Virus record (IMG/VR): IMGVR_UViG_3300023174_000100
Coordinates: 1 to 64,000 of that record
Length of the DNA: 64,000 nt
Reading direction: 5' to 3' (one strand)
Origin: a virus
Shown: piece by piece, positions 1 to 59,771 of the stretch
Layout: every line of letters starts with the position of its first letter
Position numbering within the stretch: the stretch's first letter is position 1
Translations under genes and position numbers: made by a program
Notes under the pieces: generated by a model
Databases searched by the model: none
What the model was told of the DNA's origin: nothing
The model's input: only the letters and a program-made list of their open reading frames with translations

Positions 1-1362
1 ATCACCGGACCACAAGGTAACCAAGGACCAACTGGTCTTCAGGGTACAACAGGAGCACAGGGCAATCAAGGACCTACCGGATTACAAGGAACAGTAGGCG
101 CACAAGGTTTTCAAGGCCCTACGGGTCAATCAGGTAACCCTAGCTTTCAACCAGGCCCTCAGGGCAATCAAGGCCCACAGGGTGATACTGGCTTTCAAGG
201 ATTAACCGGCTTACAAGGCACCACCGGAGCTCAAGGAAGACAAGGCCCTCAAGGCAATCAAGGCCCTACAGGGCTATCTGGAGTAGGTTTACAAGGACCC
301 GCCGGCGAACCAGGAGGTACTGGCCCACAGGGAAGACAAGGACCGCAAGGCAACCAAGGCCCTACCGGCCCGCAAGGACAAAAGGGGGAGGTAGGAGTAA
401 CAGGACCTCAAGGATTTACCGGTCTTCCTGGTCCTAGAGGCCCGCAAGGATTTACAGGAGACACAGGACCTTCAGGCCCTCAAGGATTTACCGGTCCTCC
501 GGGTTCTACAGGCTCTACCGGCTCTACTGGCTCACCCGGTCCTACTGGTCCACAAGGTTCTACCGGCGCCCCAGGCCCTACCGGCTCGCAAGGATTTACC
601 GGTCCTCCAGGTTCTACAGGCTCTACTGGCTCACCCGGTCCTACTGGTCCACAAGGTTCTACCGGCGCCCCAGGCCCTACCGGCTCGCAAGGATTTACCG
701 GCCCTACAGGATTAGGCATTCCTGGCTCACCTGGTCCCACTGGCCCTACTGGTTCTCCAGGACCTGCTGGCCCCACCGGACCTAAGGGAGATACAGGCGC
801 TACTGGACTAGGTCTCCCAGGCTCTCCTGGACCTACCGGACCTACTGGCCCTGCGGGCCCTACCGGTCCCACCGGTTCTTCTGGACCTACCGGACCTACC
901 GGTCCTACCGGTCCCTCAGGAGGATCAGGCCCTCCTGGTCAGAAGGGTCAGAAAGGCGAAAGGGGTATAGGAGGTCCATTCGCGGCCTTCTCCGACAAAA
1001 GACTAAAAAAAGACATAAAGCAAATACAACCTGTATTAGAAGAAATATATAATATAAAACCAGTTAATTATTCTTGGAATCCTGACGAAATGAAAGGAAT
1101 AATCTTAGAGGTAAATAAAAATTCGTCTTCTTACAGAATACCTACCGATATAAATAATAAGGAAGTCGGTATAATTGCACAGGACATAACAGATGGGCTA
1201 AAAACAGGTCTTCTAAGAGAGCTAAAAATACAAGGACAAAAAGGAGTATTAGCTGTTAATTATGACAAATTATCTGTTTATAATTTAAAAGCCATACAAG
1301 AATTATATGATATAGTAAAAAATTTATCAGAAAGAGTTTTAAAACTAGAAAACAAAAAATAA
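1..1362 (+). CDS. Collagen-like (Gly-X-Y) fibre protein with C-terminal intramolecular chaperone (peptidase S74); 5'-truncated by the window edge
   Basis: Frame 1 is open from base 1 ([15 protein letters not shown]...) through about 320 codons of Gly-X-Y into [11 protein letters not shown]...VGIIAQD...VNYDKL...LKAIQEL, the S74 signature. The ORF-track entry 1090..1362 is only its C-terminus. Confidence 0.9.
481..701 (+). repeat. Near-perfect tandem duplication inside the collagen region (108-bp and 99-bp units plus start of a third)
   Basis: Units start with caaggatttaccgg at 481, 589 and 688. The first two differ by a 9-bp (one triplet) indel and one substitution. Confidence 0.9.
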
Positions 1363-44487: not shown

Positions 44488-45984
44488 ATGAATTTTGAAT
44501 TACCAAAACTAAAGAAAATAACTAATCGTCCTAAAAAGAAAAAAATTCTACTCCTGTCGGATGATTTAAGATTAAACTCAGGTATTGGAGTAATGTCTAG
44601 GGAAATTGTAGTAGGTACAGCTAAATATTTTGATTGGGTTCAAATTGGAGCTGCTATAAAAAATCCTGATGCCGGTAAAATTATTGATGTTTCAGATGAT
44701 GTTAACAAAGAAATAGGAATAGATGACGCTAGCGTGCTTATATACCCTAATAATGGGTACGGAGATCCACACAAATTAAGAGAAATAATAACTAGAGAGT
44801 CGCCTGATGCGATTTTACATTTTACGGACCCGAGATTTTGGGAATGGCTATATGATATGGAGAGAGAAATTAGAACATCTATTCCTATTATGTATTATAA
44901 TATATGGGACGATTTGCCATATCCACATTGGAATTCTGAATTTTATGCTTCATGTGATTTCATATTTAATATATCAAAGCAAACTCATAATTTAGTTAAT
45001 GTAGTATTAGAAGAAAATGAATATAAATATTATGATTTAGATTCTGGCGAACCAAAATCTTTTGATATAGATACAACTTACACTGCTTACATTCCTCATG
45101 GAATAAATAATAAACACATATATAAGATTCTTCCAAGTAGCAAAGTATATGATGAATACAATGCTTATATATCTGATTTTAAAAGAGAAACGCCTACTGA
45201 TTTTTTAATTTTTTGGAATAATAGAAATATAAGAAGAAAACAACCGGGGGATGTTATTCTAGCTTTTACTAGGTTTTGCGAATATCTAAAAGATGATGAT
45301 AAAGCTAGTAGATGTATTTTAGTCATGCATACAGACCCTATCGATGGAAATGGTACAGACTTAATTGCAACGGTAAAAGCTTTAAACCCAAAAGGAAAAG
45401 TCATTTTTTCTGATAAAAAAATAGATACAAAGACACTAAATTTTTGGTATAATTTTGCGGATGTTGTTTTAAATATTGCATCTAATGAAGGATTCGGTCT
45501 TTCAGGAGCTGAAGCACTAATGGCCGGCACCCCTATTATAAATAATGTAACAGGAGGATTACAAGACCAGTGTGGTTTCATAGACAATAAAGGAAAGTAC
45601 ATAACATTTACAAAAGATTTCCCTACTAATCACGCAGGAACTTTTAGAAAGCATGGCGAATGGGCATTTCCAGTATTTCCTAACAATAGATCTCTACAAG
45701 GTTCACCGGCAACTCCCTATATTTTTGATGACAGAGTATCCTTTGAGGAAGTGGCCGAGGCTATATTTTATTGGTACAAAATTCCTAGAGAAGAAAGAAA
45801 AGCATTAGGGAGCAAAGGAACGGCTTATGCTCTTGACCCGAAAGTAGGAATGTCAGCAGAGGAAATGTGTAATAGATTTATAAAAAATATCAATTTAGCT
45901 CTTGATAATTGGAAGCCGAGATCTAGATATTCACTACATGAAATAAAACCAGAAAAAACTAATAAAGCAATAGGAATTCTATGA
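44488..45984 (+). CDS. GT4-like glycosyltransferase
   Basis: SGIG, NRNIRRKQ, NEGFGLSGAEALMAGTPII. Confidence 0.88.
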   Translation: MNFELPKLKKITNRPKKKKILLLSDDLRLNSGIGVMSREIVVGTAKYFDWVQIGAAIKNPDAGKIIDVSDDVNKEIGIDDASVLIYPNNGYGDPHKLREIITRESPDAILHFTDPRFWEWLYDMEREIRTSIPIMYYNIWDDLPYPHWNSEFYASCDFIFNISKQTHNLVNVVLEENEYKYYDLDSGEPKSFDIDTTYTAYIPHGINNKHIYKILPSSKVYDEYNAYISDFKRETPTDFLIFWNNRNIRRKQPGDVILAFTRFCEYLKDDDKASRCILVMHTDPIDGNGTDLIATVKALNPKGKVIFSDKKIDTKTLNFWYNFADVVLNIASNEGFGLSGAEALMAGTPIINNVTGGLQDQCGFIDNKGKYITFTKDFPTNHAGTFRKHGEWAFPVFPNNRSLQGSPATPYIFDDRVSFEEVAEAIFYWYKIPREERKALGSKGTAYALDPKVGMSAEEMCNRFIKNINLALDNWKPRSRYSLHEIKPEKTNKAIGIL

Positions 45985-47261
45985 AAAAGAAAGTTACTTT
46001 AGTCGCACCAGTATATACGGCTTCCGGATATGGGGCACACGGCAGAGACATAGCATGGGCATTGATATCATTAAAGGATAAATACGATTTAAAAATAGTT
46101 TCTACGGCATGGGGAAATACTCCTACTAATGGATTAGATAAAAACAACCCTTCTGATGCAGAAATTATAAAAAGAATCGTACCAAAAACGGATATTAATG
46201 ATGATATTTTTATTCAGTTGACAATACCTAATGAATTTGTCAAATGCGGTAAATATAACATAGGTTTCACTGCTGGGATAGAAACAGATATGTGTTCTCC
46301 TAAATGGATTGAGGGATGTAACAATATGGATATGCTATTGACAACATCTAAACATTCTCTTGATGTTATAAATGATTCTGTATTTGATAAAGTAAATAAA
46401 CATACAAATCAATTAGAAGGCACTCTAAAGCTCAGAGATAGCCTTAGAAAAGAGATTTTATTTGAGGGTGTAGACACAACAGTTTACACCAACAAAATGC
46501 ATCCTGATGAAAATATGAACATTCTAGAGCATGTTAAAGAAGATTTCTGTTTCCTATTTGTTGGACATTGGTTGCAAGGTTCTTTCGGTAATGATAGAAA
46601 GAATGTAGGAGCTATGATAAAAGTATTTTTTGATACATTTAAAAGAATGCCAGCCAAAAATAGACCGGCATTAATTTTAAAAACAAGTGGAGGTAAGTAT
46701 TCAGTAGGTGATTTAAATGAAATTCAATCAAAAATTAGGTCTATTTTAGACGGAGAGTCTGGTCCAAACATTTATGTCCTACATGGAGATTTGACAGATG
46801 GAGAAATGAATAATTTATACAACGACCCAAAAGTAAAAGCTATGATTTCCTTTACAAAAGGAGAGGGGTATGGAAGACCTCTAGCTGAATTTTCCGTAAC
46901 TGGGAAGCCTATCATAGCATCTAATTGGTCGGGACATACTGATTTCTTAAATCCAAAATACTGTTCTCTGCTTCCCGGCCGACTAGAGCCCGTGGATAAA
47001 TCAGTTCTAAATGATTGGTTTATACAGGAATCTAAATGGTTTACAGTCGATTATATGTATTCTGCTGGAGTTATTGCAGATGTTTTTACTAGATATAATA
47101 AGCATAAAGAAAACGCGGAAAAACAAAGACTTCATACGTTAGCTCATTTTACTTTTGAGAAAATGGTCGATAAATTAGAAGTAATTCTGGATTCAATTGA
47201 AATTCAAAACCAACCTAAGATAAATAAACTTAATTTACCAAAACTAAAACTAGTAGAATGA
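45981..47261 (+). CDS. GT4-like glycosyltransferase
   Basis: SGYG, GVD, DRKN, GEGYGRPLAEF, SNWSGHTDF. Confidence 0.88.
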   Translation: MKKKVTLVAPVYTASGYGAHGRDIAWALISLKDKYDLKIVSTAWGNTPTNGLDKNNPSDAEIIKRIVPKTDINDDIFIQLTIPNEFVKCGKYNIGFTAGIETDMCSPKWIEGCNNMDMLLTTSKHSLDVINDSVFDKVNKHTNQLEGTLKLRDSLRKEILFEGVDTTVYTNKMHPDENMNILEHVKEDFCFLFVGHWLQGSFGNDRKNVGAMIKVFFDTFKRMPAKNRPALILKTSGGKYSVGDLNEIQSKIRSILDGESGPNIYVLHGDLTDGEMNNLYNDPKVKAMISFTKGEGYGRPLAEFSVTGKPIIASNWSGHTDFLNPKYCSLLPGRLEPVDKSVLNDWFIQESKWFTVDYMYSAGVIADVFTRYNKHKENAEKQRLHTLAHFTFEKMVDKLEVILDSIEIQNQPKINKLNLPKLKLVE

Positions 47262-47725
47262 TTGATGTAACTTTTGAGGAACTATCTCCTATAACCGGAC
47301 AACAAGAAGTAATTGTAGAACTTACAGATACTGGATTGCTGACAAAACTTTGCATGGGCAGCGGCTACTATACAGACTCGAGCCTAGTTCTAGGCTCCGA
47401 CGCCCAGATTCAGTATGAGTCGACGCTGCCCCGAATTTGTATAGATAAAAGACACGTTGATGTAGAAAACTTGGTATGGTATCCTTTTGTATTTTCTTTA
47501 GACAAGGCGGTAATTTTTCCGGACGAAGGGGATACTAAGAGGATGGTTTGGAAGGTATGTGAGATTATTGATTTTACGGATGATGATGTTAAGAATTACC
47601 CTAATGCTATAATAAGGAGAAAAGTTGATGTAGATAATTGTATTGAATTTAATGCGGATGCTTTTTCTAATGCTTTTGAAAAATTATATGAATTAAATTT
47701 ACCAAAACATAAAGAAATTGGATAA
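47258..47725 (+). CDS. Hypothetical protein
   Basis: 155-aa ORF overlapping both GT neighbours. Confidence 0.6.
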   Translation: MIDVTFEELSPITGQQEVIVELTDTGLLTKLCMGSGYYTDSSLVLGSDAQIQYESTLPRICIDKRHVDVENLVWYPFVFSLDKAVIFPDEGDTKRMVWKVCEIIDFTDDDVKNYPNAIIRRKVDVDNCIEFNADAFSNAFEKLYELNLPKHKEIG

Positions 47726-48488
47726 CATTTACCTTTCATATTGTGTTACTGCCTGTGATGAGAAAGATGAGTTATTTGTCTTACTTTCTTTATTGGAGGG
47801 AGTTATTGCAGTAGATACGGAAATTATTGTGCAGACGGATTCCTCCAGGGTAACTAATGATGTTTTGGATGTAATTAAGAATCATCCTATATCAGAACAT
47901 ATAAATCATGTTAATTTTCCATTGAACGGAGATTTTGCAACATTTAAAAATAATTTGTTTAAGCATGCAAGAGGTGAATGGATTTTTCAAATTGATGCAG
48001 ATGAGTTATTGAATGATTATTTGTTGTATAATTTAAAAACATTGTTGGAAATTAATGCAGACATGGAAATGATTGCCGTTCCTAGAGTTAACATTGTAGA
48101 AAACATTACACAAGAATGGATTAATCATTGGAATTGGAAAATTAGCAAACAAGATATAGCTATTCAATCTACTTTAGAGCCTATAAGTATTTATTCTGAT
48201 TTATATAAATTGCTTGAGATTAATAATTTGATTAAGGAGGAGTATAACATTAATAGTAGTAAAGATATAAGGTCTGTTGTTTATTATAAGCCTATTATTA
48301 ATTTTCCGGATTATCAAACGAGGATATATAGGAATTTAGATAAGATTAGATTTAAGAATAAGGTACATGAAGTAATTACAGGATATTCATATTATGCTGC
48401 TATACCTGATGAATGGAATTGGTGTTTATTGCATGTTAAGAGTATTAATAAGCAGATAAGTCAAAATGAAATGTATTCTAAATTATAA
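47718..48488 (+). CDS. GT2-like glycosyltransferase
   Basis: SYCVTACDE, DFATFKN, WIFQIDADE, PDYQTRI, KVHE motifs. Confidence 0.85.
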   Translation: MDNIYLSYCVTACDEKDELFVLLSLLEGVIAVDTEIIVQTDSSRVTNDVLDVIKNHPISEHINHVNFPLNGDFATFKNNLFKHARGEWIFQIDADELLNDYLLYNLKTLLEINADMEMIAVPRVNIVENITQEWINHWNWKISKQDIAIQSTLEPISIYSDLYKLLEINNLIKEEYNINSSKDIRSVVYYKPIINFPDYQTRIYRNLDKIRFKNKVHEVITGYSYYAAIPDEWNWCLLHVKSINKQISQNEMYSKL

Positions 48489-48514
48489 TATGATTATTCC
48501 TAAATGTTGAACTT

Positions 48515-49552
48515 ATGTTACGTATTAGATTAGTTGATGTTGATAGGGGTAGAAATAAGGCTACATATAGAGGATTTTTGATGTATAAAGATTTGTTCAA
48601 AGATGTAGGAATAGATTTTATTATTGCTGGGGATATGGTAGACAGTTGGGATATAAGCATTTTAGGTGATGAATGTTTTATTAACCGGCGGGCGAAGTCT
48701 TTACAGGAGTCTATTGATTATGGATTAGAGAGATTACATGAGATAGATGGAAGATTCATGCTATATGATGGTTCTGATTCTCCATCTATTTTAGGATCTT
48801 ATGATGTATTTGAAAATAGCAATGCAGAAAAATTAATAAAGAATCAAATATATAGTAAAGATGTATATAGCATTCCATCTCCATTGGGTAAGGAATGGTG
48901 GAACATGTATGCCGGCCGGGAGGATAAGATTTCCTATGATGTAAAAAGATATGATGACATTGTTTTATCTGGTTATAATCTCGGGTACTATCATCCACAT
49001 TATATGCAATTCGCGAATCATGAAGTAAAAAAGGAACATGATATATTTGCAGTTTATCAAGCGGATCATAAGGAGAATTATGACTTTGGAATTCGCAACG
49101 ATTTATATTATAGCAGACATAGAAAGCGGAGCTTGGATACATTGGATAGATTGGATGATACCTATAATATCGTTTCTGGCAGGCTTTCTCCTGAGGATTA
49201 TAACATAGTATTGATGAGAAGTAAATGTGCTATATCTCCTTTTGGTATGGGGGAGATATGTTTTAGGGATTTTGAGATATGGAATTATGGATGTATAATG
49301 ATTAAGCCTTTTATGAATAATGTAATAACTAATCCTAATCCGTATATAGACAGGGAGACTTATTTTGCATGTAATAATAATTGGGATGATTTAAATGATC
49401 TTATTGATGTTGTATTGTCATTGAACAATAATGATGTTAAAGATATTAATAACAATGTGAGGAATATGTTGATTGATATGTATTCCCCGCAGAATTTTGT
49501 ATTGAATTTTTATAACATTTTAGCAAGTTTAAACGGAGTAACTAAATACTAG
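48515..49552 (+). CDS. GT-B-fold glycosyltransferase-like protein
   Basis: C-terminal SKCAISPFGMGEICFRDFE...GCIMIKP resembles Glyco_trans_1_2-type donor domains. Confidence 0.6.
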   Translation: MLRIRLVDVDRGRNKATYRGFLMYKDLFKDVGIDFIIAGDMVDSWDISILGDECFINRRAKSLQESIDYGLERLHEIDGRFMLYDGSDSPSILGSYDVFENSNAEKLIKNQIYSKDVYSIPSPLGKEWWNMYAGREDKISYDVKRYDDIVLSGYNLGYYHPHYMQFANHEVKKEHDIFAVYQADHKENYDFGIRNDLYYSRHRKRSLDTLDRLDDTYNIVSGRLSPEDYNIVLMRSKCAISPFGMGEICFRDFEIWNYGCIMIKPFMNNVITNPNPYIDRETYFACNNNWDDLNDLIDVVLSLNNNDVKDINNNVRNMLIDMYSPQNFVLNFYNILASLNGVTKY

Positions 49553-49563
49553 TAATAATAGTC

Positions 49564-50826
49564 ATGAATAAATTAGTAGAAATTTTAAAGTCTTGGGGTA
49601 TAGCTATAAACCCAAATGAAAAACAAAGTAAATTAGCTGAAGCTAGAATTCAAATTTGTGATGTCTGTGAACATAAGAAAACATCTCCTACGGTTCATTG
49701 TGGTGTTTGCGGATGCTTACTTAAAGGTAAGATATATTCACCGGTAGAAAATGCTTGCCCGGAAGGAAAATGGGCGGAGGTAGATAAAGCTATGTCAGAT
49801 GAAATACAGGCATTAGCAGCTGAAATTCCTACCTATAATACAAATCCGGTTATGCCCGAACCCATACAAACTGAAGATAAAACTGTTCAATTTGTTTGCG
49901 CACAGCCGGCCACTCTATATTATGCATGGCAAGTTGAAGTAATGATTAATAATTTCCTATCAATGGGTGTTAATCCCGCTTCTATAAATATTGTATGTGC
50001 TTTAGATGAAACTGAGACAATCCCTACTGAATGGTTTAAACTGTTGATGAGGTATAGACATGTTAAATTCTTTTTCTACTTGGATACTAGAACTTCTAAA
50101 AATTATGTATCTTCTATAAGACCTAATATACTTAAACAACACTGGCTAAGGAATCCTAGCTTAAAAGATGATATTATATTCTACCATGATTGTGATATTG
50201 CTTTTACTAGGCCTGTTAATGAGTGGCTTACTACAGATTTATTAAAAGACAATAACTGGTATGGCTCTAATTGCAATTCGTATCTTTCTTCCGATTATAT
50301 AGAAAGTAAAGGACAAGATATTTTAAATGCTATGTGCAATATTAGTGGAATACCCAAAAGCATAGTACAACAAAATAACGAAAATAATATAGGAGCTCAA
50401 TATATAATGAAAGATGTTAGCCCTTTTTTCTGGTTATCTGTGGAAGAACAGTGCGAAAAACTATACACTGATATTACGCAAATAAATAACGTAAAAAAAC
50501 AAGATGATTCGAATTACATGGAACTGCAAATTTGGTGCGCTGATATGTGGGCTATTCTTTTCACTGCATGGAATTTAGGTAAAAACACAATAGTTCATGG
50601 TAATTTAGGATTCTCTTGGTCAACTGATACTGAAAATGACTGGTATAAGTATAATATATATCATAACGCAGGAGTGACTTCCGATAATCAAGGATATTTT
50701 TTTAAAGCAGCATATATGAATAGATTACCTTATAATGAACCTGATGTTTATATACAAGATAGCGCCAATAAAAAATATTGGGAATTAATTCAACAAACAG
50801 GAAAAAATTCTTGTTTATTAGAGTGA
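49564..50826 (+). CDS. Cys-rich Zn-binding N-terminal domain fused to an HPAT/SERGT (GT95/GT96)-like protein O-glycosyltransferase domain
   Basis: N-terminus CDVC...CGVCGC...CPEGKW. GT domain YYAWQ, YVSSIRP, YHDCD (DxD), IGAQYIM, WCADMWA, YHNAG. Confidence 0.6.
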   Translation: MNKLVEILKSWGIAINPNEKQSKLAEARIQICDVCEHKKTSPTVHCGVCGCLLKGKIYSPVENACPEGKWAEVDKAMSDEIQALAAEIPTYNTNPVMPEPIQTEDKTVQFVCAQPATLYYAWQVEVMINNFLSMGVNPASINIVCALDETETIPTEWFKLLMRYRHVKFFFYLDTRTSKNYVSSIRPNILKQHWLRNPSLKDDIIFYHDCDIAFTRPVNEWLTTDLLKDNNWYGSNCNSYLSSDYIESKGQDILNAMCNISGIPKSIVQQNNENNIGAQYIMKDVSPFFWLSVEEQCEKLYTDITQINNVKKQDDSNYMELQIWCADMWAILFTAWNLGKNTIVHGNLGFSWSTDTENDWYKYNIYHNAGVTSDNQGYFFKAAYMNRLPYNEPDVYIQDSANKKYWELIQQTGKNSCLLE

Positions 50827-51003
50827 TGTTGTTTTTCATTTTGTCATATAACTATTATATAGTATATTAGTTACTAATTAGAATCGGTAGTTTAAGATAA
50901 AATAAGGATAAATCCTAGATGGTGCTTAATTCACCCCGATTTTTTTAATTTTTATTTATACAGACCTTTTAGAACACAAACTAGAAAATAAGTTAAAAAT
51001 TAA

Positions 51004-51501
51004 ATGAGTATTAGAGAGAATAGAAGTCTTGAAAATTTACCCGGAGAGGTTTGGAAACCATTTCCTAACTACGAAAAATGGTATCAAGTTTCTAACTTAG
51101 GAAGAGTAAAAAGAATGAGTAGGTTATGTGTACAAAAAAGAAAAAACGAGAATGGAAAGCCTCTTTCCGAACTGTCTTATACATTAGATGAAATAATTCT
51201 AGCCCAATCATTTACAACAGCCGGCTACTTAATGATAAGATTCTCTTATGAGACAAAAGAGGATGGACTTATTTCAAGATTTAATGTAGCAATGCATAGG
51301 GCTGTAGCCATGGCTTTTATTCCAAATCCTAATAATTACCCACAAGTAAATCATATAGACGGAGACAAAACAAATAATACAGTTTCTAATTTAGAATGGT
51401 GCGATAATTCTAGAAATCAAATACACAGAAATTATATACTAGAGAAAAAATCTAAGTCTAAATATCTAGGGTATTTAATGAGAAATAAAAACAAACTATA
51501 A
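51004..51501 (+). CDS. NUMOD4-HNH homing endonuclease
   Basis: EVWKP...YQVSNLGRVK (NUMOD4); HRAVAMAFIPNP...VNHIDGDKTNNTVSNLEW (HNH). Confidence 0.92.
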   Translation: MSIRENRSLENLPGEVWKPFPNYEKWYQVSNLGRVKRMSRLCVQKRKNENGKPLSELSYTLDEIILAQSFTTAGYLMIRFSYETKEDGLISRFNVAMHRAVAMAFIPNPNNYPQVNHIDGDKTNNTVSNLEWCDNSRNQIHRNYILEKKSKSKYLGYLMRNKNKL

Positions 51502-51504
51502 TAT

Positions 51505-52311
51505 ATGCAAAATGTTGTGTATTGGATTGGGGTAAAAAATCCAAATCCTCACATGAACGATAAACATGGGGGGTTTAAGTATTTAGACGTGTCAAGAAAA
51601 ACATGGGAATGGTGGTGCAATAAAAATAATGTTGCTTTTGTTCCTTACGAATTAGATAATTATAAACCATTTCACGAAGGGACTAAAGTTACTTGGCAGA
51701 GATGGTTTGATATGAAAAAAGTAATAACAGAGAAAGGTATTGACCCTAATTGGATTTGGGCAATAGACGGATCTAGCATGATTAAATGGGATGCTCCCGC
51801 TCCCTGGGAGGATAAAAAATTAGATTCCAAAATAGTTTACGCTCATAGATCTTTAGAAAATTTATTTTGGATAACAGAGGGGATAGATGGATATAAAGAT
51901 TTGTTTTCTGTTGATTTTGATTTGACAAAATATTTATGTACAGGAAATGTTCTTCTTAATAAAGACAATTACAGTTTTCTATCCGACTTAGAAATTTTCT
52001 TCTTGACAAATAGAGAAAAGATAATGTACCTCGAAAATGAAAAAATAAAAAGGGGTACGGATCAGCCTGTATTTAATTACTTTGTTCAGGATAACAAAAT
52101 TCCTTTTAGCGTAGATACTCTTAATCCTAAGTTTATGCTAACTCATCTCAATAGATTTCATTGGCTTAGTCATAATTGGAATACACAAAATACTACACCA
52201 TTTTTTATAAAATATGGATGGTTTTGGTTATTTAGCGGATTTCCTACTAGAGGAGACCGATATGAGTTGATGTCAAAAACATGGGATTTAATAAAACATA
52301 ATTATGAGTAA
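51505..52311 (+). CDS. GT-A glycosyltransferase (GT8/GT34-like), DxD motif degenerate
   Basis: WQRW, AIDGSS, YLCTG, TDQPVFNY; paralogous to the next gene. Confidence 0.65.
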   Translation: MQNVVYWIGVKNPNPHMNDKHGGFKYLDVSRKTWEWWCNKNNVAFVPYELDNYKPFHEGTKVTWQRWFDMKKVITEKGIDPNWIWAIDGSSMIKWDAPAPWEDKKLDSKIVYAHRSLENLFWITEGIDGYKDLFSVDFDLTKYLCTGNVLLNKDNYSFLSDLEIFFLTNREKIMYLENEKIKRGTDQPVFNYFVQDNKIPFSVDTLNPKFMLTHLNRFHWLSHNWNTQNTTPFFIKYGWFWLFSGFPTRGDRYELMSKTWDLIKHNYE

Positions 52312-53044
52312 AGACATAGTTGTTCAAATAGCTATTAACAAATCCGAAAGATCCGCTAATCAAGGATATTCAATTAGCTCTAAATCTTGGAAAAAATGGT
52401 GTGACTTAAACAATGTCGACTTATTTTCCATAGATTCCGAAATAGTGTCTGATTTAGGTTTTCAGTGGAATAAAATTTTTATTTTAGATTTACTCTCTGC
52501 AAACGATATTGAGTATAATAGAGTTTTGTATGTAGATTCTGACACAATAGTTCATCCTAAAATGCCTTATGTATTTGATTTAGTCGGAGATAAATTTGGC
52601 GTAGTAAGAAATTACGGATGTATGGATTGGGTTTGCCGAAGCGTTGAGAATTGCCATCAATTGGTTTTTCCAAATAGCGAAGTATTAAGTCCATTCAAAT
52701 ACTTTAACTCCGGAGTTATGATATTTAACAAATCTCATAAATCTTTTTTTGACTCAGTAAAGGATTTTTACAATACGGAAAATAAAAAAATTTTAGATTT
52801 TCAAAGTACAGGTGTAGGTAAAGATCAACCTATACTTAATTATTTATCTGAAATTCATAATATAGAAAAAGTATATTTACCTTATGAGTATAATATGCAA
52901 GATATGAATAGATTTGAGGTACTAACCTCTAATATGCTACATACTAGATTTGGATGGATATATCATTTTAATGGAGGAGTTAAACCAACTCCAGGTGCTT
53001 GGATGCTTGAAACACATAATTTTTTAAATGAAAGATATGGTTAA
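52304..53044 (+). CDS. GT8-like glycosyltransferase
   Basis: RVLYVDSD, YFNSGV, DQPILN, YNMQ, IYHFNG. Confidence 0.85.
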   Translation: MSKDIVVQIAINKSERSANQGYSISSKSWKKWCDLNNVDLFSIDSEIVSDLGFQWNKIFILDLLSANDIEYNRVLYVDSDTIVHPKMPYVFDLVGDKFGVVRNYGCMDWVCRSVENCHQLVFPNSEVLSPFKYFNSGVMIFNKSHKSFFDSVKDFYNTENKKILDFQSTGVGKDQPILNYLSEIHNIEKVYLPYEYNMQDMNRFEVLTSNMLHTRFGWIYHFNGGVKPTPGAWMLETHNFLNERYG

Positions 53045-54062
53045 ACTAGATTATACCTATGTTATAGGAACAAATGTTATGTTTTATGAAATAGACATGC
53101 TTCCTTACTTAGTTGATAGTATTATTGATTCAGTAAAAGAAATTGAAAATCAAGAAAATATAACCATTGATTTATTTTTAAATACATGTTATTTGTTCGA
53201 ATCTTGCGAAAGTCCAGAAACAGCTAAAAATATTCAATGGAAATTTATGAATATTATTCATAAATTAAAGCAAGAGACTAATTGTAAAATAATACAAGGG
53301 CATTTACCAAATTCTTCAGATTTATATACAATGGTAAATTACAGAAGAGACTTGAATTACAATTATGCTAATAAAGTAGATATTGTTATTTGGGGAGAAA
53401 CAGATTGCTTAGTTCCTCATAATACTTTTTCTATATTAGATAAAATAAAAAAGTCATCTGATAATGCTAAATTTTACAGATATATTATTACTTTTGCGGA
53501 TAGAAAAATGTGGGATTCTTCCTGGGAGGTATTAGAACATCCAGAATTTTTGAATTCTACATACTATGAAAAATCAGATCCTAGGTGCTTTACAGAAAAA
53601 CACTCTATAAGATATGTCATGACTAAAGATGAAATGGATAAGATTAATAAAAAATATGAATCTGATATTGATGTTAATGTCTTGTATAGTCCTAAATTTG
53701 ATGGTAGTTTATTATGTATAAGTTCTGAATTAATAAAAGCTGGCGCTAACATACCTTTAGGTTTTTGGGGCCTGAGCGGAGAAGATACAGCTTTTATGCA
53801 AGAATGCATGAAAGTTATGCAAAATTATTACGTTCAATATGTAGTAAAAAATATTTTGAAAGTACATAATAGAGAACATCCAGAAAAGAGGAAGTATGCT
53901 GTGTCAAAATCAGATGGTCAAAAAAGCACTCAAGAAAAAAAAGGAGATTGGTACAATATAGTAAGAGACATAAACAAGAAAAACTTAGAACTTCTATACG
54001 GAAATAATAGACAAGAAAGGTTACTTACTTATAAAGATTATATAAAAGAATTAAATATATAG
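53028..54062 (+). CDS. GT-A-fold glycosyltransferase-like protein
   Basis: WGETDC (ExD), FDGS, GEDTAF, HNREHP; located in GT island. Confidence 0.6.
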   Translation: MKDMVKLDYTYVIGTNVMFYEIDMLPYLVDSIIDSVKEIENQENITIDLFLNTCYLFESCESPETAKNIQWKFMNIIHKLKQETNCKIIQGHLPNSSDLYTMVNYRRDLNYNYANKVDIVIWGETDCLVPHNTFSILDKIKKSSDNAKFYRYIITFADRKMWDSSWEVLEHPEFLNSTYYEKSDPRCFTEKHSIRYVMTKDEMDKINKKYESDIDVNVLYSPKFDGSLLCISSELIKAGANIPLGFWGLSGEDTAFMQECMKVMQNYYVQYVVKNILKVHNREHPEKRKYAVSKSDGQKSTQEKKGDWYNIVRDINKKNLELLYGNNRQERLLTYKDYIKELNI

Positions 54063-54063
54063 C

Positions 54064-54981
54064 ATGGATTCTAAAGATTTAAAAAACATAGTGAAAGATT
54101 TAGAAAAAAGTCTTAAAAAAATACAAGTTAGTGGAAGAAATCTGAAAAAAATAAGTAAGAATCTCGCTAAAGAAGTAAAAAATAATAATAAACCTTCTTC
54201 TATAAAAGATTTTAAAGTAGATAAAAAAGAATTCAAGTATCCTATAAAAGTTTTAAATTATAGGGCGGTTAAAGAAAGTGACGAAAATATGTTTTTTGGA
54301 GGATCAGATGATGAGGCAAGGATATCTTGGAAGAAGCAGAAAAAATTGGACAATCCCAAATTTATGGACAAAAAAGTAGAAAGAGAATATAGACTATTGG
54401 CATATATGAGCGGAATATCTCCGAATACAGATTTATCGGATGTTCAAAGAGTAGTTATATCCAAAAAAAGTTCCGGAGCTACTTACTTTTTATTTGAATC
54501 TAAGAAATATTATGTTGAAACGGAGTATAATTTCAACACTAAAAATTTGATAAATAAGTCCATACAAACCATAAAATCCGAGGGAGAGAATATTTCTAGC
54601 GGCGATTTAAATTTACTTGTTAGACAAATAGCTAATTTAAAAAACCAGAATAAAATAAGAAAAATAGAAGGAGAGTTCCTGAGAAGAAGTAATTCTACAG
54701 GTTATTATGTATATTTAAGATATGGTTTTGTTCCGGATGAATCAGCTCAAAGCAATTTTAGAAACTTAATAGATGAATTTAATAATCAATATCCTAATAA
54801 TAGAGTAAATAAAATAGAAGATTTCCTAAAAACGGAAACAGGCAGGAATTTTTGGAGAGAGAAGGGTGATGATTGGGATGGATATTTTGATTTATCAGAT
54901 AACTCTTATAGTATGAAAACACTAGGAGATTATGTCGAAAATAAAATTGACAGAGATTTGTTTAACTTAACATTTAAATAG
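54064..54981 (+). CDS. Hypothetical protein with GNAT-like C-terminal domain
   Basis: RQIANL...KIEGE...GYYVYLRYGF...GRNFWREKG..W.GYFDL. Confidence 0.5.
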   Translation: MDSKDLKNIVKDLEKSLKKIQVSGRNLKKISKNLAKEVKNNNKPSSIKDFKVDKKEFKYPIKVLNYRAVKESDENMFFGGSDDEARISWKKQKKLDNPKFMDKKVEREYRLLAYMSGISPNTDLSDVQRVVISKKSSGATYFLFESKKYYVETEYNFNTKNLINKSIQTIKSEGENISSGDLNLLVRQIANLKNQNKIRKIEGEFLRRSNSTGYYVYLRYGFVPDESAQSNFRNLIDEFNNQYPNNRVNKIEDFLKTETGRNFWREKGDDWDGYFDLSDNSYSMKTLGDYVENKIDRDLFNLTFK

Positions 54982-54983
54982 CA

Positions 54984-55238
54984 ATGGAAAGCAACTTAAA
55001 ATTAATTCAAAAAACCCTCAGAGATTTAATTAAATTTTCAGATGGTGAAGAAGACTTAGAATTAGATGTAGCTTTTATACTTTCGAATTATGAAGATTCT
55101 TACATAGATGAAGTTAGAAAAATTTACTACGAGAGAAAATTTAATTGGCTTGACGGAATAGACAACAAAATAGCTGATTTACTGATAAATATATACGGAT
55201 TATACTTTGATGAACAAACAGATACCGAAACTAATTAA
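54984..55238 (+). CDS. Small acidic hypothetical protein
   Basis: 84 aa, D/E-rich, starts 2 nt after the previous stop. Confidence 0.55.
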   Translation: MESNLKLIQKTLRDLIKFSDGEEDLELDVAFILSNYEDSYIDEVRKIYYERKFNWLDGIDNKIADLLINIYGLYFDEQTDTETN

Positions 55239-55250
55239 ATAATTTATATC

Positions 55251-55904
55251 ATGGGTTACATTTTACCATCGTTTTATCATGCAATAGCAAGCGAAAAATT
55301 AAAAAGACCTTGTCCGGAAATTTTTGTAGAGACAGGAACTTTTAAAGGAGGCACGGCGCTTACAACCTTACGGCATGTTGGAAATTTAGACGACTTCTCT
55401 CAGTGGCACACAGTTGAGTTAGGAGATTCTATTGCAAAAATTGCCTCTAATAGATTCAAGCAAATAGAAAAAAGGGGGAAATTTTATGATGAGATTCTTT
55501 CGGACGATACGGAAGATTCAGATTTTATTGAAAAGGAAACTTACTTTGATGGAAAATTAACGTTATATAAAAACGACAGCACTGCTTTCCTATCAGAGTT
55601 TTTAAAAGACAGGACGAATCCCATATGTTTTTGGTTAGATGCTCACGCAGGTGCCGACAAATACGCTAGAGGAGAACAAGATGTACCCCTACTTAGAGAA
55701 CTTGAACTAATCTTTGAAACTGCCCAGGAAAATGATTTAATAGGTATTGATGACGCTCACTTATTCGGTACAAATCAAAATGGCAAATGCGATTATACAA
55801 AAATAACAATTAACTTAATAAAAGAATTATCTAACTCCTATGGATATTCCGTATATGCATCTCAACCTTATAACATGGAATTATTAATTATATTTCAAGA
55901 ATGA
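55251..55904 (+). CDS. Class I SAM-dependent methyltransferase-like protein
   Basis: FVETGTFKG, TVEL, DS, FWLDAH, IDD motifs. Confidence 0.75.
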   Translation: MGYILPSFYHAIASEKLKRPCPEIFVETGTFKGGTALTTLRHVGNLDDFSQWHTVELGDSIAKIASNRFKQIEKRGKFYDEILSDDTEDSDFIEKETYFDGKLTLYKNDSTAFLSEFLKDRTNPICFWLDAHAGADKYARGEQDVPLLRELELIFETAQENDLIGIDDAHLFGTNQNGKCDYTKITINLIKELSNSYGYSVYASQPYNMELLIIFQE

Positions 55905-56830
55905 GAATATTAATCATACATCAACCTTTCCCTATGGGTAATTATAAATTATCCCAAGCATTAGGATCAGAATTGCATTTAAGAGGACATGAAGTAACTA
56001 CAGTACATCAACTTAACATGTCAGAAATAAATGAAGAGATGTCAGAAGAATTTAAAAATAGTATAGATGAATTAAATCCTGATGTTATTTATTATGAAAT
56101 GTTAGATGCTGCTACATTTAATATCATAAAAAATGTAAAATGTAGGAATAGAATATTATGCGCTACATCTAATGGAGTTTTAGGATACGATGGAATTTTG
56201 AAAGGATGGGGAACATATTACGATAAATTGATAACTAATTCTAAAAAATTATATGATGATGTTTATACTAACATATGCGCTGAAACATTTAATTATTATT
56301 TTCTAGCTATAAATGATTCTGAATTAATATACAATCCCATGTATGATAAGAGATGTGTATTTTTGGGAATGGGATTTAATAGACTTACAGATGAATCTTA
56401 CAAGCTAGAAAGAGAAATATTTTTTTCTGGAGGTAATGATTCATTATCTATATATGGTCAAGGTTGGGGTAATCATGAAAATTTAGTTGGCATTTTACCT
56501 CCTGATGATATTGGTTCCTTATACAAATCAGCTAAGAGTGCTGTAGCCATAATAGGTAAAGGCCAAAGAGAATTAGGTATGATTAATAACAGATACTCTG
56601 AAATAGCTTTTTCTAAATGTCCTATAGTTACCTATCCTTATGATATCGATTGGTTTGGTGCTGAAAATTACATGAACTTTATAAAATCCCCTTCCGAACT
56701 ACACAAATTAGTATCGGAAATAATTAGAAATCCTGATAAATATCATTATAAATGTAACCTTTTTAGGGATTTCATTGTTAATCAGAATAAAATATTTTAC
56801 GAAAAATTAACTAGATTACTTTATGTATAA
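55901..56830 (+). CDS. GT-B glycosyltransferase (CgeB/Glyco_trans_1_2-like)
   Basis: MRILII, VFLG, IYGQGW, LYKSAK, NNRYSE motifs. Confidence 0.75.
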   Translation: MRILIIHQPFPMGNYKLSQALGSELHLRGHEVTTVHQLNMSEINEEMSEEFKNSIDELNPDVIYYEMLDAATFNIIKNVKCRNRILCATSNGVLGYDGILKGWGTYYDKLITNSKKLYDDVYTNICAETFNYYFLAINDSELIYNPMYDKRCVFLGMGFNRLTDESYKLEREIFFSGGNDSLSIYGQGWGNHENLVGILPPDDIGSLYKSAKSAVAIIGKGQRELGMINNRYSEIAFSKCPIVTYPYDIDWFGAENYMNFIKSPSELHKLVSEIIRNPDKYHYKCNLFRDFIVNQNKIFYEKLTRLLYV

Positions 56831-57410
56831 CTACGAAGAAATTTTAAAAGACATTCCCGATAAAAAGGAGAATAAAAACACTACATCTCACAAATTTAAG
56901 AAAGATTTACTAGATTTTTTCTCTGACAAAAATATAAAAGTTTGTTTAGAAATAGGATCTAACTGGGGGTATACAACTAGAGTATTGTCTTACATATCTG
57001 AAAAAGTATATACTATTGATCACCTAGAAGATAATATTAAAAAGGTAATAGAAAATACGAAGGGCAGAAAGAATATAACTTGTATTATTGGAGATGCCTA
57101 CTCAAATAAAACATACATAAACATAAATGATAGCATTGATTTATGTTTTATTGATTGTGTTCATGATTACTCAAATGTTAAAGAAGATATTGAGAGATGC
57201 TTACGAATGAAAAAAGAGGATAAAGACTTATATATTGTCTTTGATGATTATGGACATCCAACAGCAAGAGGAGTTAAAAAAGCTATAGATGAGGCTATAA
57301 CTTCCGGTAGACTTGAGGATACTCATAGAATAGGCCACGAATCCGGATTTAATGTTTTTAATTCTGTTGTATTAGTTGACAGCGAAGGGATAATTTGCAA
57401 AGTTTTATAA
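56823..57410 (+). CDS. Methyltransf_24-like SAM-dependent methyltransferase
   Basis: LEIGSNWGYTT, FIDCVHDY, IVFDDYG motifs. Confidence 0.85.
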   Translation: MYNYEEILKDIPDKKENKNTTSHKFKKDLLDFFSDKNIKVCLEIGSNWGYTTRVLSYISEKVYTIDHLEDNIKKVIENTKGRKNITCIIGDAYSNKTYININDSIDLCFIDCVHDYSNVKEDIERCLRMKKEDKDLYIVFDDYGHPTARGVKKAIDEAITSGRLEDTHRIGHESGFNVFNSVVLVDSEGIICKVL

Positions 57411-58411
57411 ATATGAACATAGCAATAATATCCGAAATAGGAAATTTTACTAAATATCCTAGAAATTTTGAGAATGCTAGAACAGATGTAGCTTGGTCGA
57501 TTGCTTTAGATGCAGTTAGTGTACCCGCTGATTCTCACTTAATAAAAAAGTATATTGAATCGTTTACGTCTTTTAAAAAGTTTGACCTAGCTATTATAAT
57601 ACCCGGTAAAAATAAACCATATTTAGAAATTAATTTTATTAGAGAATATTTTGCTGATAAAGTTACTATGATGCAGGAAGGTCCAAACTGGTATTGGCAA
57701 GATTATGATATAAAAGGTCAGTTTAATTTTTATAACGCATTAAGAGAGTGCGACTTTATTCTTTGTCATAATTCAGCAGATAAAAAATACTATAAGGGAA
57801 TAACTAATCTAGAGTGTTTAGTAATGCCTTCTCTTATGATTGAAGATACCATAAAAAACGTAGTTCCAAAAAGAAGAGATGCTGAAGGTATTGTCATAGG
57901 AGGTAATTTTTGTTCTTGGTATGGAGGTATGGATTCGTTTATAGTTTCTGCGTCATCAAGAAAAGAATGGTCTACGGGAGATAATTTAATACCTATCTTT
58001 GCTCCTTCTATGGGTCGAAAAAAAGAAGATGAGGACTACATTCCCGACATTACACATTTGCCTTATTGCTCTTGGATGGAGTGGATTAATCAATTAGCAT
58101 CTAAAGCTAAAATAGGCGTACATTTAATGCGAACGCATGCAGCAGGTACTTTTGCTTTAAATTGTTCTTTTTTAGGTATTCCTTGTGTTGGTTATGAGGG
58201 ACTTGACACTCAGGATAATCTACATCCGTATACTACAGTTAGACTAGGAAACACATCACAAGCAGTAGATATTATAAAAAAGCTAGCGAATCCAGGTTTT
58301 TATGAAATGTGTTCAGAGGAAACAAAACATTTATATGACTCTCACTATTCTGAATCAGCATTCAAAAACCGTTTCATAAACAAACTTAATAATTTAGTAA
58401 ATGAAAATTAG
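57395..58411 (+). CDS. GT-B glycosyltransferase-like protein
   Basis: AAGTFALNCSFLGIPCVG donor-domain-like motif; located in GT island. Confidence 0.6.
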   Translation: MQSFINMNIAIISEIGNFTKYPRNFENARTDVAWSIALDAVSVPADSHLIKKYIESFTSFKKFDLAIIIPGKNKPYLEINFIREYFADKVTMMQEGPNWYWQDYDIKGQFNFYNALRECDFILCHNSADKKYYKGITNLECLVMPSLMIEDTIKNVVPKRRDAEGIVIGGNFCSWYGGMDSFIVSASSRKEWSTGDNLIPIFAPSMGRKKEDEDYIPDITHLPYCSWMEWINQLASKAKIGVHLMRTHAAGTFALNCSFLGIPCVGYEGLDTQDNLHPYTTVRLGNTSQAVDIIKKLANPGFYEMCSEETKHLYDSHYSESAFKNRFINKLNNLVNEN

Positions 58412-59771
58412 TTTTATTGTACCCGGAAGAAACAACTTAAAATACTTTAAATGGTCTTATGATTCTATTATGAAAAATAAGGGAAATCATGAAGTTGAAA
58501 TTTGCTTTGCCGATGACGCTTCTACTGATGGTACATGGGATTGGGTTTATAGTGAATCTCTAATAAATCCTATGCTAAAAGTCATGCGAAATGAAGGAAA
58601 TACGAGATTGGGACACACTATATTATACGATGCTTTAGTTAGAAGATCTTCTTATGACATATGCATTATATGGCATTGCGACATGTATTTAGCTCCTGGA
58701 GCATTAGACGCTATTGAAAAAAACATGGTAGATAAAAAAACCATTGTCTCACTTACTAGAGTGGAACCTCCTCTACATCCTCCGGGACATGAAAAAATAA
58801 TATCAGATTTAGGAACGGAGCCGGAAACATTCATGGAGAGTAAGTTCATAGAATTAGTTCACAACATGAAAACAAAATCTTCGAAAAAAGACAAAACAAC
58901 AAACGGCGTATTTGCTCCATGGGCTTTTTACAAAGAGGAATTTTTGAAAATTGGAGGTCATGATTCTTTATTTTATGTCCAATCAAAAGAAGATTCTGAC
59001 ATTTGGAATAGATTAATGCTAAATGGAGCAACATTTATACAAACATGGGAAGGATTTGTATATCACATGACATGCAGAGGATCTAGATTCAACCCAACTA
59101 TTACACAAGTTGGTAAAAATTCTGATGAGTGGGAGAAGCAAAACATTATATCTACAAGAAATTTCATTAGAAAATGGGGAGGGATGCCACTTCAAAATGA
59201 ATATCATGCAATTTCTCCAAATAAAAAATATAATATTGGAATCATTGTCGACATGTCTTCTGAAATGAATCAACCAAGCGATGAGGAGTTTATAGATTTT
59301 ATTGGATTCTTAGAAATTTTTTCCGATTCTTTGCATATCGTAGGAGATAAAAAATATAGAGATTTAATTAAGTTTTACATAGATAAAGAACAGGCAAATA
59401 CATTATACTACTTAGCTGACAGACTTTATGGATACAACTATAAATACACTCCTGTAAATCAGATAGTGATAGATGATAGCATAGTTATTAGCATGGAATG
59501 GGATAAGATTAAAGTTAATGAGGTATTTGACTTTCTGCAAAAATTCCCATTTATTATTGAAAATTATAGTCCTGGAATGTATGAAAGTAACATTGGCACA
59601 ATACATATTAAAAATGACAACTCTATTTCAAAAACTTATGAAAATAATTTAATAACAGTAAATAATATCTATCAATTAAGGATATATAAAGAAATTTACC
59701 CGGAATATTTTGATAGATACAGACCTGTTTTAAGCTTTTTAGAAATGGAAAAATTAAATAATATCTTATAA
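58401..59771 (+). CDS. GT2-like glycosyltransferase
   Basis: ISFIVP, DDASTDGT, HCDM, IGGHD, EDSD, VYH motifs. Confidence 0.88.
   Translation: MKISFIVPGRNNLKYFKWSYDSIMKNKGNHEVEICFADDASTDGTWDWVYSESLINPMLKVMRNEGNTRLGHTILYDALVRRSSYDICIIWHCDMYLAPGALDAIEKNMVDKKTIVSLTRVEPPLHPPGHEKIISDLGTEPETFMESKFIELVHNMKTKSSKKDKTTNGVFAPWAFYKEEFLKIGGHDSLFYVQSKEDSDIWNRLMLNGATFIQTWEGFVYHMTCRGSRFNPTITQVGKNSDEWEKQNIISTRNFIRKWGGMPLQNEYHAISPNKKYNIGIIVDMSSEMNQPSDEEFIDFIGFLEIFSDSLHIVGDKKYRDLIKFYIDKEQANTLYYLADRLYGYNYKYTPVNQIVIDDSIVISMEWDKIKVNEVFDFLQKFPFIIENYSPGMYESNIGTIHIKNDNSISKTYENNLITVNNIYQLRIYKEIYPEYFDRYRPVLSFLEMEKLNNIL

Follow-up and report, generated by a model that had tools for sequence, protein, structure and literature searches.

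Which reaction is catalysed by the protein encoded at positions 49564..50826 (+ strand) of the IMG/VR virus record IMGVR_UViG_3300023174_000100, and on which acceptor, is the question raised by this locus. The window considered here is the first 64 kb of this 98.6-kb record, which is estimated to cover ~56% of the genome (~44% missing) of an AT-rich myovirus (~30% GC) encoding terminase, portal, major head protein and tail sheath. A first-pass annotation of the window had described the product as a plant-type protein O-glycosyltransferase (HPAT/SERGT-like) fused to a Zn-binding domain and acting on Ser/Thr or hydroxyproline of the virion. Our results favour, with moderate confidence, a soluble cytoplasmic GT-A enzyme that initiates O-glycans on Ser/Thr-rich tracts and that, in this phage, modifies a virion acceptor, with a Thr-rich collagen-like fibre as the best candidate.

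The open reading frame (ORF) ends in a TGA stop and is the sole long frame at its locus. According to the ORF list, the PHROG matches and an AlphaFold2 model, its 420 amino acids (aa) comprise an N-terminal six-cysteine (Cys6) module, a linker and a C-terminal GT-A glycosyltransferase domain. The model, built from 45 sequences, has a mean predicted local distance difference test (pLDDT) score of 90.4 and is poor only at residues 89-103 (pLDDT <50), within the linker (residues 78-107; 49795..49884, + strand), which varies in length and sequence in the alignment and is probably disordered. There are no hydrophobic segments (maximum 19-residue Kyte-Doolittle mean 1.09) and, therefore, the protein should act in the cytoplasm of the infected cell.

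The C-terminal domain (residues 108-420; 49885..50823, + strand) is predicted to adopt a GT8-like, retaining-type GT-A fold. Foldseek ranked the GT8 structural group first, namely LgtC (1g9r), glycogenin (1zcu, 3u2t), the Skp1 alpha-galactosyltransferase (6mw8), the UGGT catalytic domain (6fsn) and GlyE (5gvv), which are fold neighbours sharing only 7-13% sequence identity with the phage protein. Together with a DxD motif (H208-D209-C210-D211; 50185..50196, + strand), putatively involved in nucleotide-sugar and metal binding, this predicted fold bears out the identification of the protein as a glycosyltransferase. Further downstream, a conserved His and Lys (H367-N-A-G ... K381; 50662..50706, + strand), invariant in distant family members, resemble the "H..G..K" metal/diphosphate motif of GT8, as judged from the sequence. 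Nevertheless, the phage protein differs from the GT8 group by its own motifs (W-Q near the start, S-S-I-R-P and W-C-A-D-M-W) and by the additional Cys6 module. It does not match the GT8 profile PF01501, whereas the neighbouring ORF 52304-53044 does (E 2.8e-7), and a search of PDB sequences with the family profile recovered none of the GT8-group enzymes; PDB searches with either the protein or the family profile returned chance matches only (TAL repeats).

The features shared with GT8 in the model and the alignment (retaining-type GT-A fold, DxD, downstream His/Lys) suggest that the C-terminal domain is probably a metal- and nucleotide-sugar-dependent, retaining transferase. Since the GT8-like fold type is retaining, the product would probably be an alpha-linked sugar derived from a UDP-sugar. 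A sugar-1-phosphate transferase of the Stealth/GlcNAc-1-phosphotransferase type, generating phosphodiester-linked sugars on Ser/Thr, would address the same residues, but the fold matches for that group are weaker and we consider this alternative very improbable.

The five ordered motifs pointed out in the first-pass annotation are all present, in the order given: YYAWQ (residues 119-123), SSIRPN (183-188), FYHDCD (206-211), IGAQYIM (276-282) and WCADMWA (324-330). In an alignment of the 45 close homologues (47-96% identity), the residues that never vary are W122, Q123, S184, H208, D209, G277, W324 and M328, and at least 90% of the sequences share D211, R186, P187, A278, Q279, C325 and D327. 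The location of these motifs on invariant or nearly invariant columns confirms that observation far beyond chance. When distant family members are considered, D211, G277, Q279, M328, H367 and K381 are still invariant and D209 is conserved in at least 90%.

These sequences belong to a large family. The protein matches PHROG 4417 (unknown function; E 1.1e-59, with residues 109-412 aligned to positions 2-291 of the 293-position profile) and, through residues 19-70, PHROG 13558 (unknown function; E 5e-8). In one database, 2178 homologous proteins were retrieved at E <=1e-3, with E values down to 1e-286, and a profile of the C-terminal domain recovered 970 clusters at 50% identity, of which 532 reached E <=1e-30. 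They come from aquatic (marine and freshwater), Bacteroidota-type and Firmicute phages, as well as from bacterial genomes. Megablast of the gene region against GenBank phages retrieved no match. Pfam has no model for this family: scans of the whole protein and of its two halves matched no glycosyltransferase family, and the C-terminal domain had no match even at E <=10. Our literature searches on the transferase family, on glycosylated poly-Thr tail proteins and on glycosylated RiPPs (peptides made by the ribosome and then modified) of Bacteroidota found nothing specific. The gene is thus a member of a large, unnamed and undescribed GT-A family of phages and bacteria. Two architectures are found, a fused form (394-420 aa) like the one described here and the C-terminal domain alone (~314 aa); among 80 viral loci, the fusion was present in 11 and the C-terminal domain alone in 69, with a separate gene for the N-terminal module (74-92 aa) in 16.

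The genomic context of this family in viruses provides a strong indication regarding its acceptors. Every ORF of the 80 viral loci bearing relatives was searched for poly-Ser/Thr runs, a run being any stretch of 12 residues of which 9 or more are Ser/Thr. Such runs were observed in the gene at position -1 in 44 of 77 loci and at position -2 in 17 of 75, and were never observed at the four downstream positions (0/78, 0/74, 0/69 and 0/64). After dereplication, grouping the transferases at 80% identity into 30 lineages, a poly-Ser/Thr gene was located at -1 or -2 in 22 lineages, compared with 18 of 738 (2.4%) among the remaining ORFs of these loci that are 100 aa or longer. The upstream proteins fall into at least 22 unrelated clusters, one of which represents a tail-tube protein (Phage_tail_2, phrog_1407); over the C-terminal 480 residues of this protein, long poly-Thr linkers connect globular modules. 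Fused forms resembling the gene studied here are also found directly behind poly-Ser/Thr proteins (L012-L014). The neighbourhood survey of homologues proposed in the first-pass annotation, for collagen or Ser/Thr-rich genes, therefore held for the Ser/Thr-rich genes and failed for collagen: collagen-like genes occur within 8 kb of relatives in only 2 of 79 loci, and a general link between the family and collagen was rejected. In L021:636-3233 and L044:77-1492, collagen-like proteins are encoded ~7-8 kb upstream of the transferase, with Ser at the Y position in 42/47 and 38/50 triplets, respectively.

In phages and prophages of Gram-positive bacteria (Enterococcus, Staphylococcus, Virgibacillus, Bacillus and Salinicoccus), the gene order is major tail protein, transferase, tail chaperones and tape measure, and the last 10-27 residues of the tail protein preceding the transferase are almost exclusively Thr/Ser. 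Similarly, Lactobacillus phage Iacchus encodes a 128-aa poly-Thr protein directly upstream of the homologue. In the Enterococcus phage phiFL1A, a culturable system, the major tail protein gp50 has a poly-Thr/Ser tail of 27 residues, and the transferase homologue gp51 comes next (L003:5348-6912). For the orthologues of gp50 (50-60% identical) in the Streptococcus phages Javan47 and Javan505, Lactobacillus phage Silenus and Bacillus phage 049ML001, the chaperones come directly next, without the transferase, and these tail proteins stop at a shared conserved motif without the poly-Thr tail (L170:1768-2400, L171:1801-2430, L172:1759-2358, L173:1792-2325). Therefore, the enzyme gene and the tag come and go together.

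This arrangement recalls the virion glycosylation of mycobacteriophages, for which Freeman et al. (2023), as cited in PMC12619734, are reported to have located glycans on the capsid and tail-tube subunits, at their C-termini. On that account, phage-encoded glycosyltransferases coat the phage's own particle, and the glycosylated site corresponds to the position of the poly-Thr tail beside the present family in Gram-positive phages. In contrast to the mycobacteriophage system, the gene analysed here is located in a glycosyltransferase island rather than beside a structural gene, and PHROG 4417 is a widely distributed family of unknown function.

Bacterial relatives extend this association to peptides. 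The homologues of Sphingobacterium, Chitinophaga, Pedobacter and Mucilaginibacter are longer (500-590 aa, with an extra C-terminal part) and are encoded in clusters that also specify a C39-peptidase ABC exporter, HlyD, a LanC-like protein and short double-glycine-leader peptides with Ser/Thr/Cys/Gly-rich cores. Such clusters were located in Sphingobacterium, Chitinophaga and Flavihumibacter (L128:2102-11896, L119:3645-12929, L110:2397-8821 and L116:349-5958), and several genomes have at least two copies. Judging from their gene content, they may represent an undescribed class of glycosylated RiPPs; clusters with this family were not described in the literature that we searched. With their leader peptides, C39 exporter and Ser/Thr/Cys-rich cores, they follow a logic like that of the glycocins, although the enzyme type differs, as the glycocin O/S-glycosyltransferases SunS and ThgS are GT2-type (PMC12457901).

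Some family members are fused to a second glycosyltransferase domain (GT2, GT6, GT7C, GT25, the sialyltransferase GT29, GT32 or GT61). Many fused members are 450-1160 aa long (proteins P0123-P0270), and single fusions to a radical-SAM/SPASM domain and to a methyltransferase were also seen. In other phages, the transferase (314 aa) forms a four-gene operon with 4-base overlaps together with a 170-aa protein, a 290-aa protein and the Cys6 module (74 aa) (L046:8001-10537; likewise in L032, L045, L048, L052, L054, L058, L059, L062 and L063). The 290-aa partner (c1_290) has an N-terminal domain similar to rhamnose-binding lectins of the SUEL type (PDB 5h4s, E 3.7e-8); the domain behind it is rich in His and belongs to no assigned family. 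The fusions to second glycosyltransferases and the lectin-like partner fit an initiating enzyme followed by elongation.

In the animal mucin-type GT27 family (polypeptide GalNAc-transferases), a GT-A enzyme adds the first sugar to dense Ser/Thr tracts and a lectin domain aids dense glycosylation. The lectin-like domain of the cassette is reminiscent of this organization, but it lies on a separate partner protein of other phages, which this genome does not encode; the two families are unrelated in sequence, and GT27 was not among the fold matches listed.

Altogether, the evidence from viruses, Gram-positive phages, Bacteroidota, fusions and cassette partners makes a Ser/Thr-directed, glycan-initiating transferase the best reading for the family, and the claim of a protein-glycosylating enzyme acting on Ser/Thr is strongly backed by this context. 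In the mechanism that we propose, the C-terminal domain would transfer the first sugar, probably alpha-linked and from a UDP-sugar, to Ser/Thr hydroxyls, and other glycosyltransferases would then lengthen the glycan; in this phage, the ~10 neighbouring glycosyltransferases and two methyltransferases would build the remainder. The Cys6 module would assist the transferase, either fused to it or as a separate small gene of the same cassette.

The Cys6 module (residues 1-77; 49564..49794, + strand) consists of helices flanking a Cys loop (nt 49657-49758) with cysteines C32, C35, C46, C49, C51 and C65, in the pattern C-x2-C ... C-x2-C-x-C ... C-P. The six cysteines are invariant in 30/30 fused homologues and in the stand-alone versions of 74-92 aa, and other phages also encode the module on its own, in a 74-aa gene belonging to the cassette of the transferase. 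Of the Zn-binding domain proposed in the first-pass annotation, the Cys-rich fused module is thus confirmed, and metal binding is its presumed role. The module may be related to PF19668 (DUF6171), which scored 14.5 bits against this protein (E 0.046; cut-off 27 bits); elsewhere in the family, two relatives matched it at E 1.9e-5 and one relative carries a precomputed PF19668 label. A complex prediction between a stand-alone transferase and a stand-alone Cys module gave a score of 0.00, which speaks neither for nor against binding. The module is probably an accessory part working with the transferase, presumably through bound metal.

In the phage itself, the gene lies in an island of co-oriented glycosyltransferase-like and methyltransferase genes (44488..59771, + strand), delineated with Pfam and PHROG scans, which includes GT1-type genes at 44488 and 45981, GT2 genes at 47718 and 58401, a GT8 gene at 52304, a Glyco_trans_1_2 gene at 55901 and a methyltransferase gene at 56823, all on the + strand. 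Directly downstream of the target, an HNH/NUMOD4 homing-endonuclease gene (51004-51501) separates it from a pair of neighbouring paralogues (51505-52311 and 52304-53044, the latter being the one that matches GT8), an order kept in L004-L009. The closest relatives (L004-L009, 68% identity) present the same island arrangement.

This island is the main argument for a non-protein acceptor in this phage, such as a host surface polysaccharide, a lipid-linked molecule or hypermodified DNA, on which the enzyme would act with the other transferases of the island. The 15-kb cluster of glycosyltransferases and methyltransferases lies by DNA polymerase and PD-(D/E)XK nuclease genes, outside the structural module, there is no poly-Ser/Thr neighbour, and studies of marine phages usually attribute such islands to modification of the host cell surface or of DNA (PMC12801897, PMC12619734). 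In contrast, the context across the family is one of Ser/Thr-rich proteins and peptides, including that of the fused forms nearest in architecture; a thymidylate-synthase-like hydroxymethylase was not found in the 98.6 kb of this incomplete genome, and membrane segments, for which a lipid-linked acceptor might create a need, are absent from the protein. We regard a non-protein acceptor as unlikely.

Nevertheless, several observations weigh against a protein O-glycan initiator with a virion acceptor. The poly-Ser/Thr gene is not adjacent in this phage or in L004-L009, and a pure poly-Ser/Thr ORF was not found in the 98.6 kb available (~56% of the genome), so that the acceptor in this phage is a guess. 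The replication genes adjoining the island (DNA polymerase and nuclease) also mark a site where DNA- or host-surface-modifying glycosyltransferases are found. Profiles of the cassette partners c1_290 and c2_170 retrieved no homologue in the 98.6-kb record, and c1_290 is similar neither to the neighbouring GT8-like genes of the window nor to the target protein. In addition, the retaining chemistry is deduced from the nearest folds alone, and the Cys-rich cores of the Bacteroidota clusters leave S-glycosylation possible for that branch.

The most Ser/Thr-dense real protein of the phage is a collagen-like fibre protein, whose C-terminal part is encoded at 1..1362 (+ strand) and which runs off the start of the window. 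A triplet scan of the window identified 105 Gly-X-Y triplets. The Y position is Thr in 41 of them, Ser/Thr in 47, Pro in only 13 and Lys in 4, whereas Pro occupies X in 43. Both large related records that carry the island encode orthologues of 1536-1661 aa, indicating that the window holds only the C-terminal third of the fibre gene. Collagen-like sequences in related records were located at G413:C1:66944-69220, 88122-88412 and 101986-102471 and at G411:C1:11431-14025, and a pair of additional collagen-like ORFs (715 and 1190 aa) is present in one related record.

GPT-rich collagen-like proteins, such as BclA of Bacillus, are O-glycosylated on Thr. This precedent and the Thr-rich Y positions make the fibre a sensible candidate acceptor. 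Hence, the proposal that the enzyme glycosylates the collagen fibre or other virion proteins was upheld as regards the family-wide Ser/Thr context and the Thr-rich Y positions, but not as regards adjacency to the presumed substrate, the gene being in a glycosyltransferase island. A 769-aa protein with GT1-type, GT25 and 2-oxoglutarate (2OG)-Fe(II) oxygenase domains is encoded between the head and tail genes (window 12478-14787). As GT25 is the family of collagen hydroxylysine galactosyltransferases, this GT25/2OG-oxygenase fusion would, from its predicted domains, serve the few Lys sites of the fibre.

The relationship with plant enzymes must be interpreted cautiously. The hydroxyproline O-arabinosyltransferases HPAT (GT95, PF23452) and the peptidyl-serine alpha-galactosyltransferase SGT1 (GT96) of plants and algae start O-glycans on small peptides and on repetitive proteins rich in hydroxyls, and the phage family would be alike in that broad sense. 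In contrast, the plant enzymes are type II membrane proteins of the Golgi, whereas the phage enzyme is soluble and its N-terminus is a Cys-rich module; their acceptors are hydroxyproline (Hyp) or Ser in Pro-rich motifs (with UDP-L-Araf or UDP-Gal as donor), whereas the context of the phage family is poly-Thr/Ser.

The plant-type assignment found no match in profile searches: neither the protein nor its C-terminal domain matched PF23452 at E <=10. Among 228 relatives, none was significant against PF23452 (cut-off 23.9 bits), the best single match being at chance level (E 0.23). This profile was also unmatched in the phage's own genome, in 42 viral records and 5 bacterial genomes with relatives and in 401 Bacillota genomes, and PF23741 (DUF7164) was likewise unmatched in all of these sets and in the 228 relatives. 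In a language-model embedding search, PF23452 was present on ~10% of the members in 22 of 30 named neighbour clusters and DUF7164 in 6, which is a lead toward HPAT rather than a test. GT95 is predicted to be GT-A-like and GT96 to have a non-GT-A fold (PMC8476585), while both are related protein O-glycosyltransferases (PMC8012813); the GT-A-like prediction for GT95 and this relatedness make a very distant common origin possible.

A true member of GT95-GT96 would glycosylate Hyp or Ser of Pro-rich, extensin- or collagen-like repeats, the Hyp being supplied by the phage 2OG-Fe(II) oxygenase. The motif order given in the first-pass annotation, which fits the conserved columns, the embedding neighbourhood, the published prediction for GT95 with its relatedness to GT96, and the phage-encoded fusion of GT1, GT25 and 2OG-oxygenase domains are all consistent with such a membership. 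The PF23452 searches, the absence of a membrane anchor, the poly-Thr/Ser rather than Pro-rich context, with Pro at only 13 of the 105 Y positions of the fibre, and the non-GT-A prediction for GT96 argue in the opposite direction, and we find this membership quite doubtful. As both the profile match and the membrane anchor failed, the protein was not filed under GT95 or GT96.

A more speculative and, in our opinion, improbable scenario extends the preferred reading, that of a Ser/Thr-directed initiator, to a glycosylated collagen fibre in which the first sugar would be placed on Y-position Thr of the triple helix and extended into a complex methylated glycan, in parallel with a lysyl-hydroxylase/GT25 route. 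In such a scenario, the extensin-type O-glycosyltransferases of plants (GT95/GT96) would have their viral and bacterial root in this family, and the Cys6 module would be a new substrate-recruiting or regulatory metal domain.

If a Ser/Thr-directed initiator is indeed what this gene encodes, a very large unnamed family would constitute a general tool with which phages sugar-coat their particles on Thr/Ser tags, at work in marine and freshwater phages and in those infecting Enterococcus, Staphylococcus, Lactobacillus and Listeria, and redeployed in peptide natural-product clusters of Bacteroidota. Virion glycans influence the immune recognition, stability and adsorption of phages, which gives the family a relevance to phage therapy, for instance with Enterococcus and Staphylococcus phages, and the enzyme with a short poly-Thr tag would form a natural portable enzyme-substrate pair of possible use in glyco-engineering. 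To this picture, the present gene adds a transferase that can be fused to a Cys6 module found elsewhere as a separate gene, and a family member whose phage also encodes a Thr-rich collagen-like fibre and another, predicted collagen-modifying enzyme of the hydroxylysine type.

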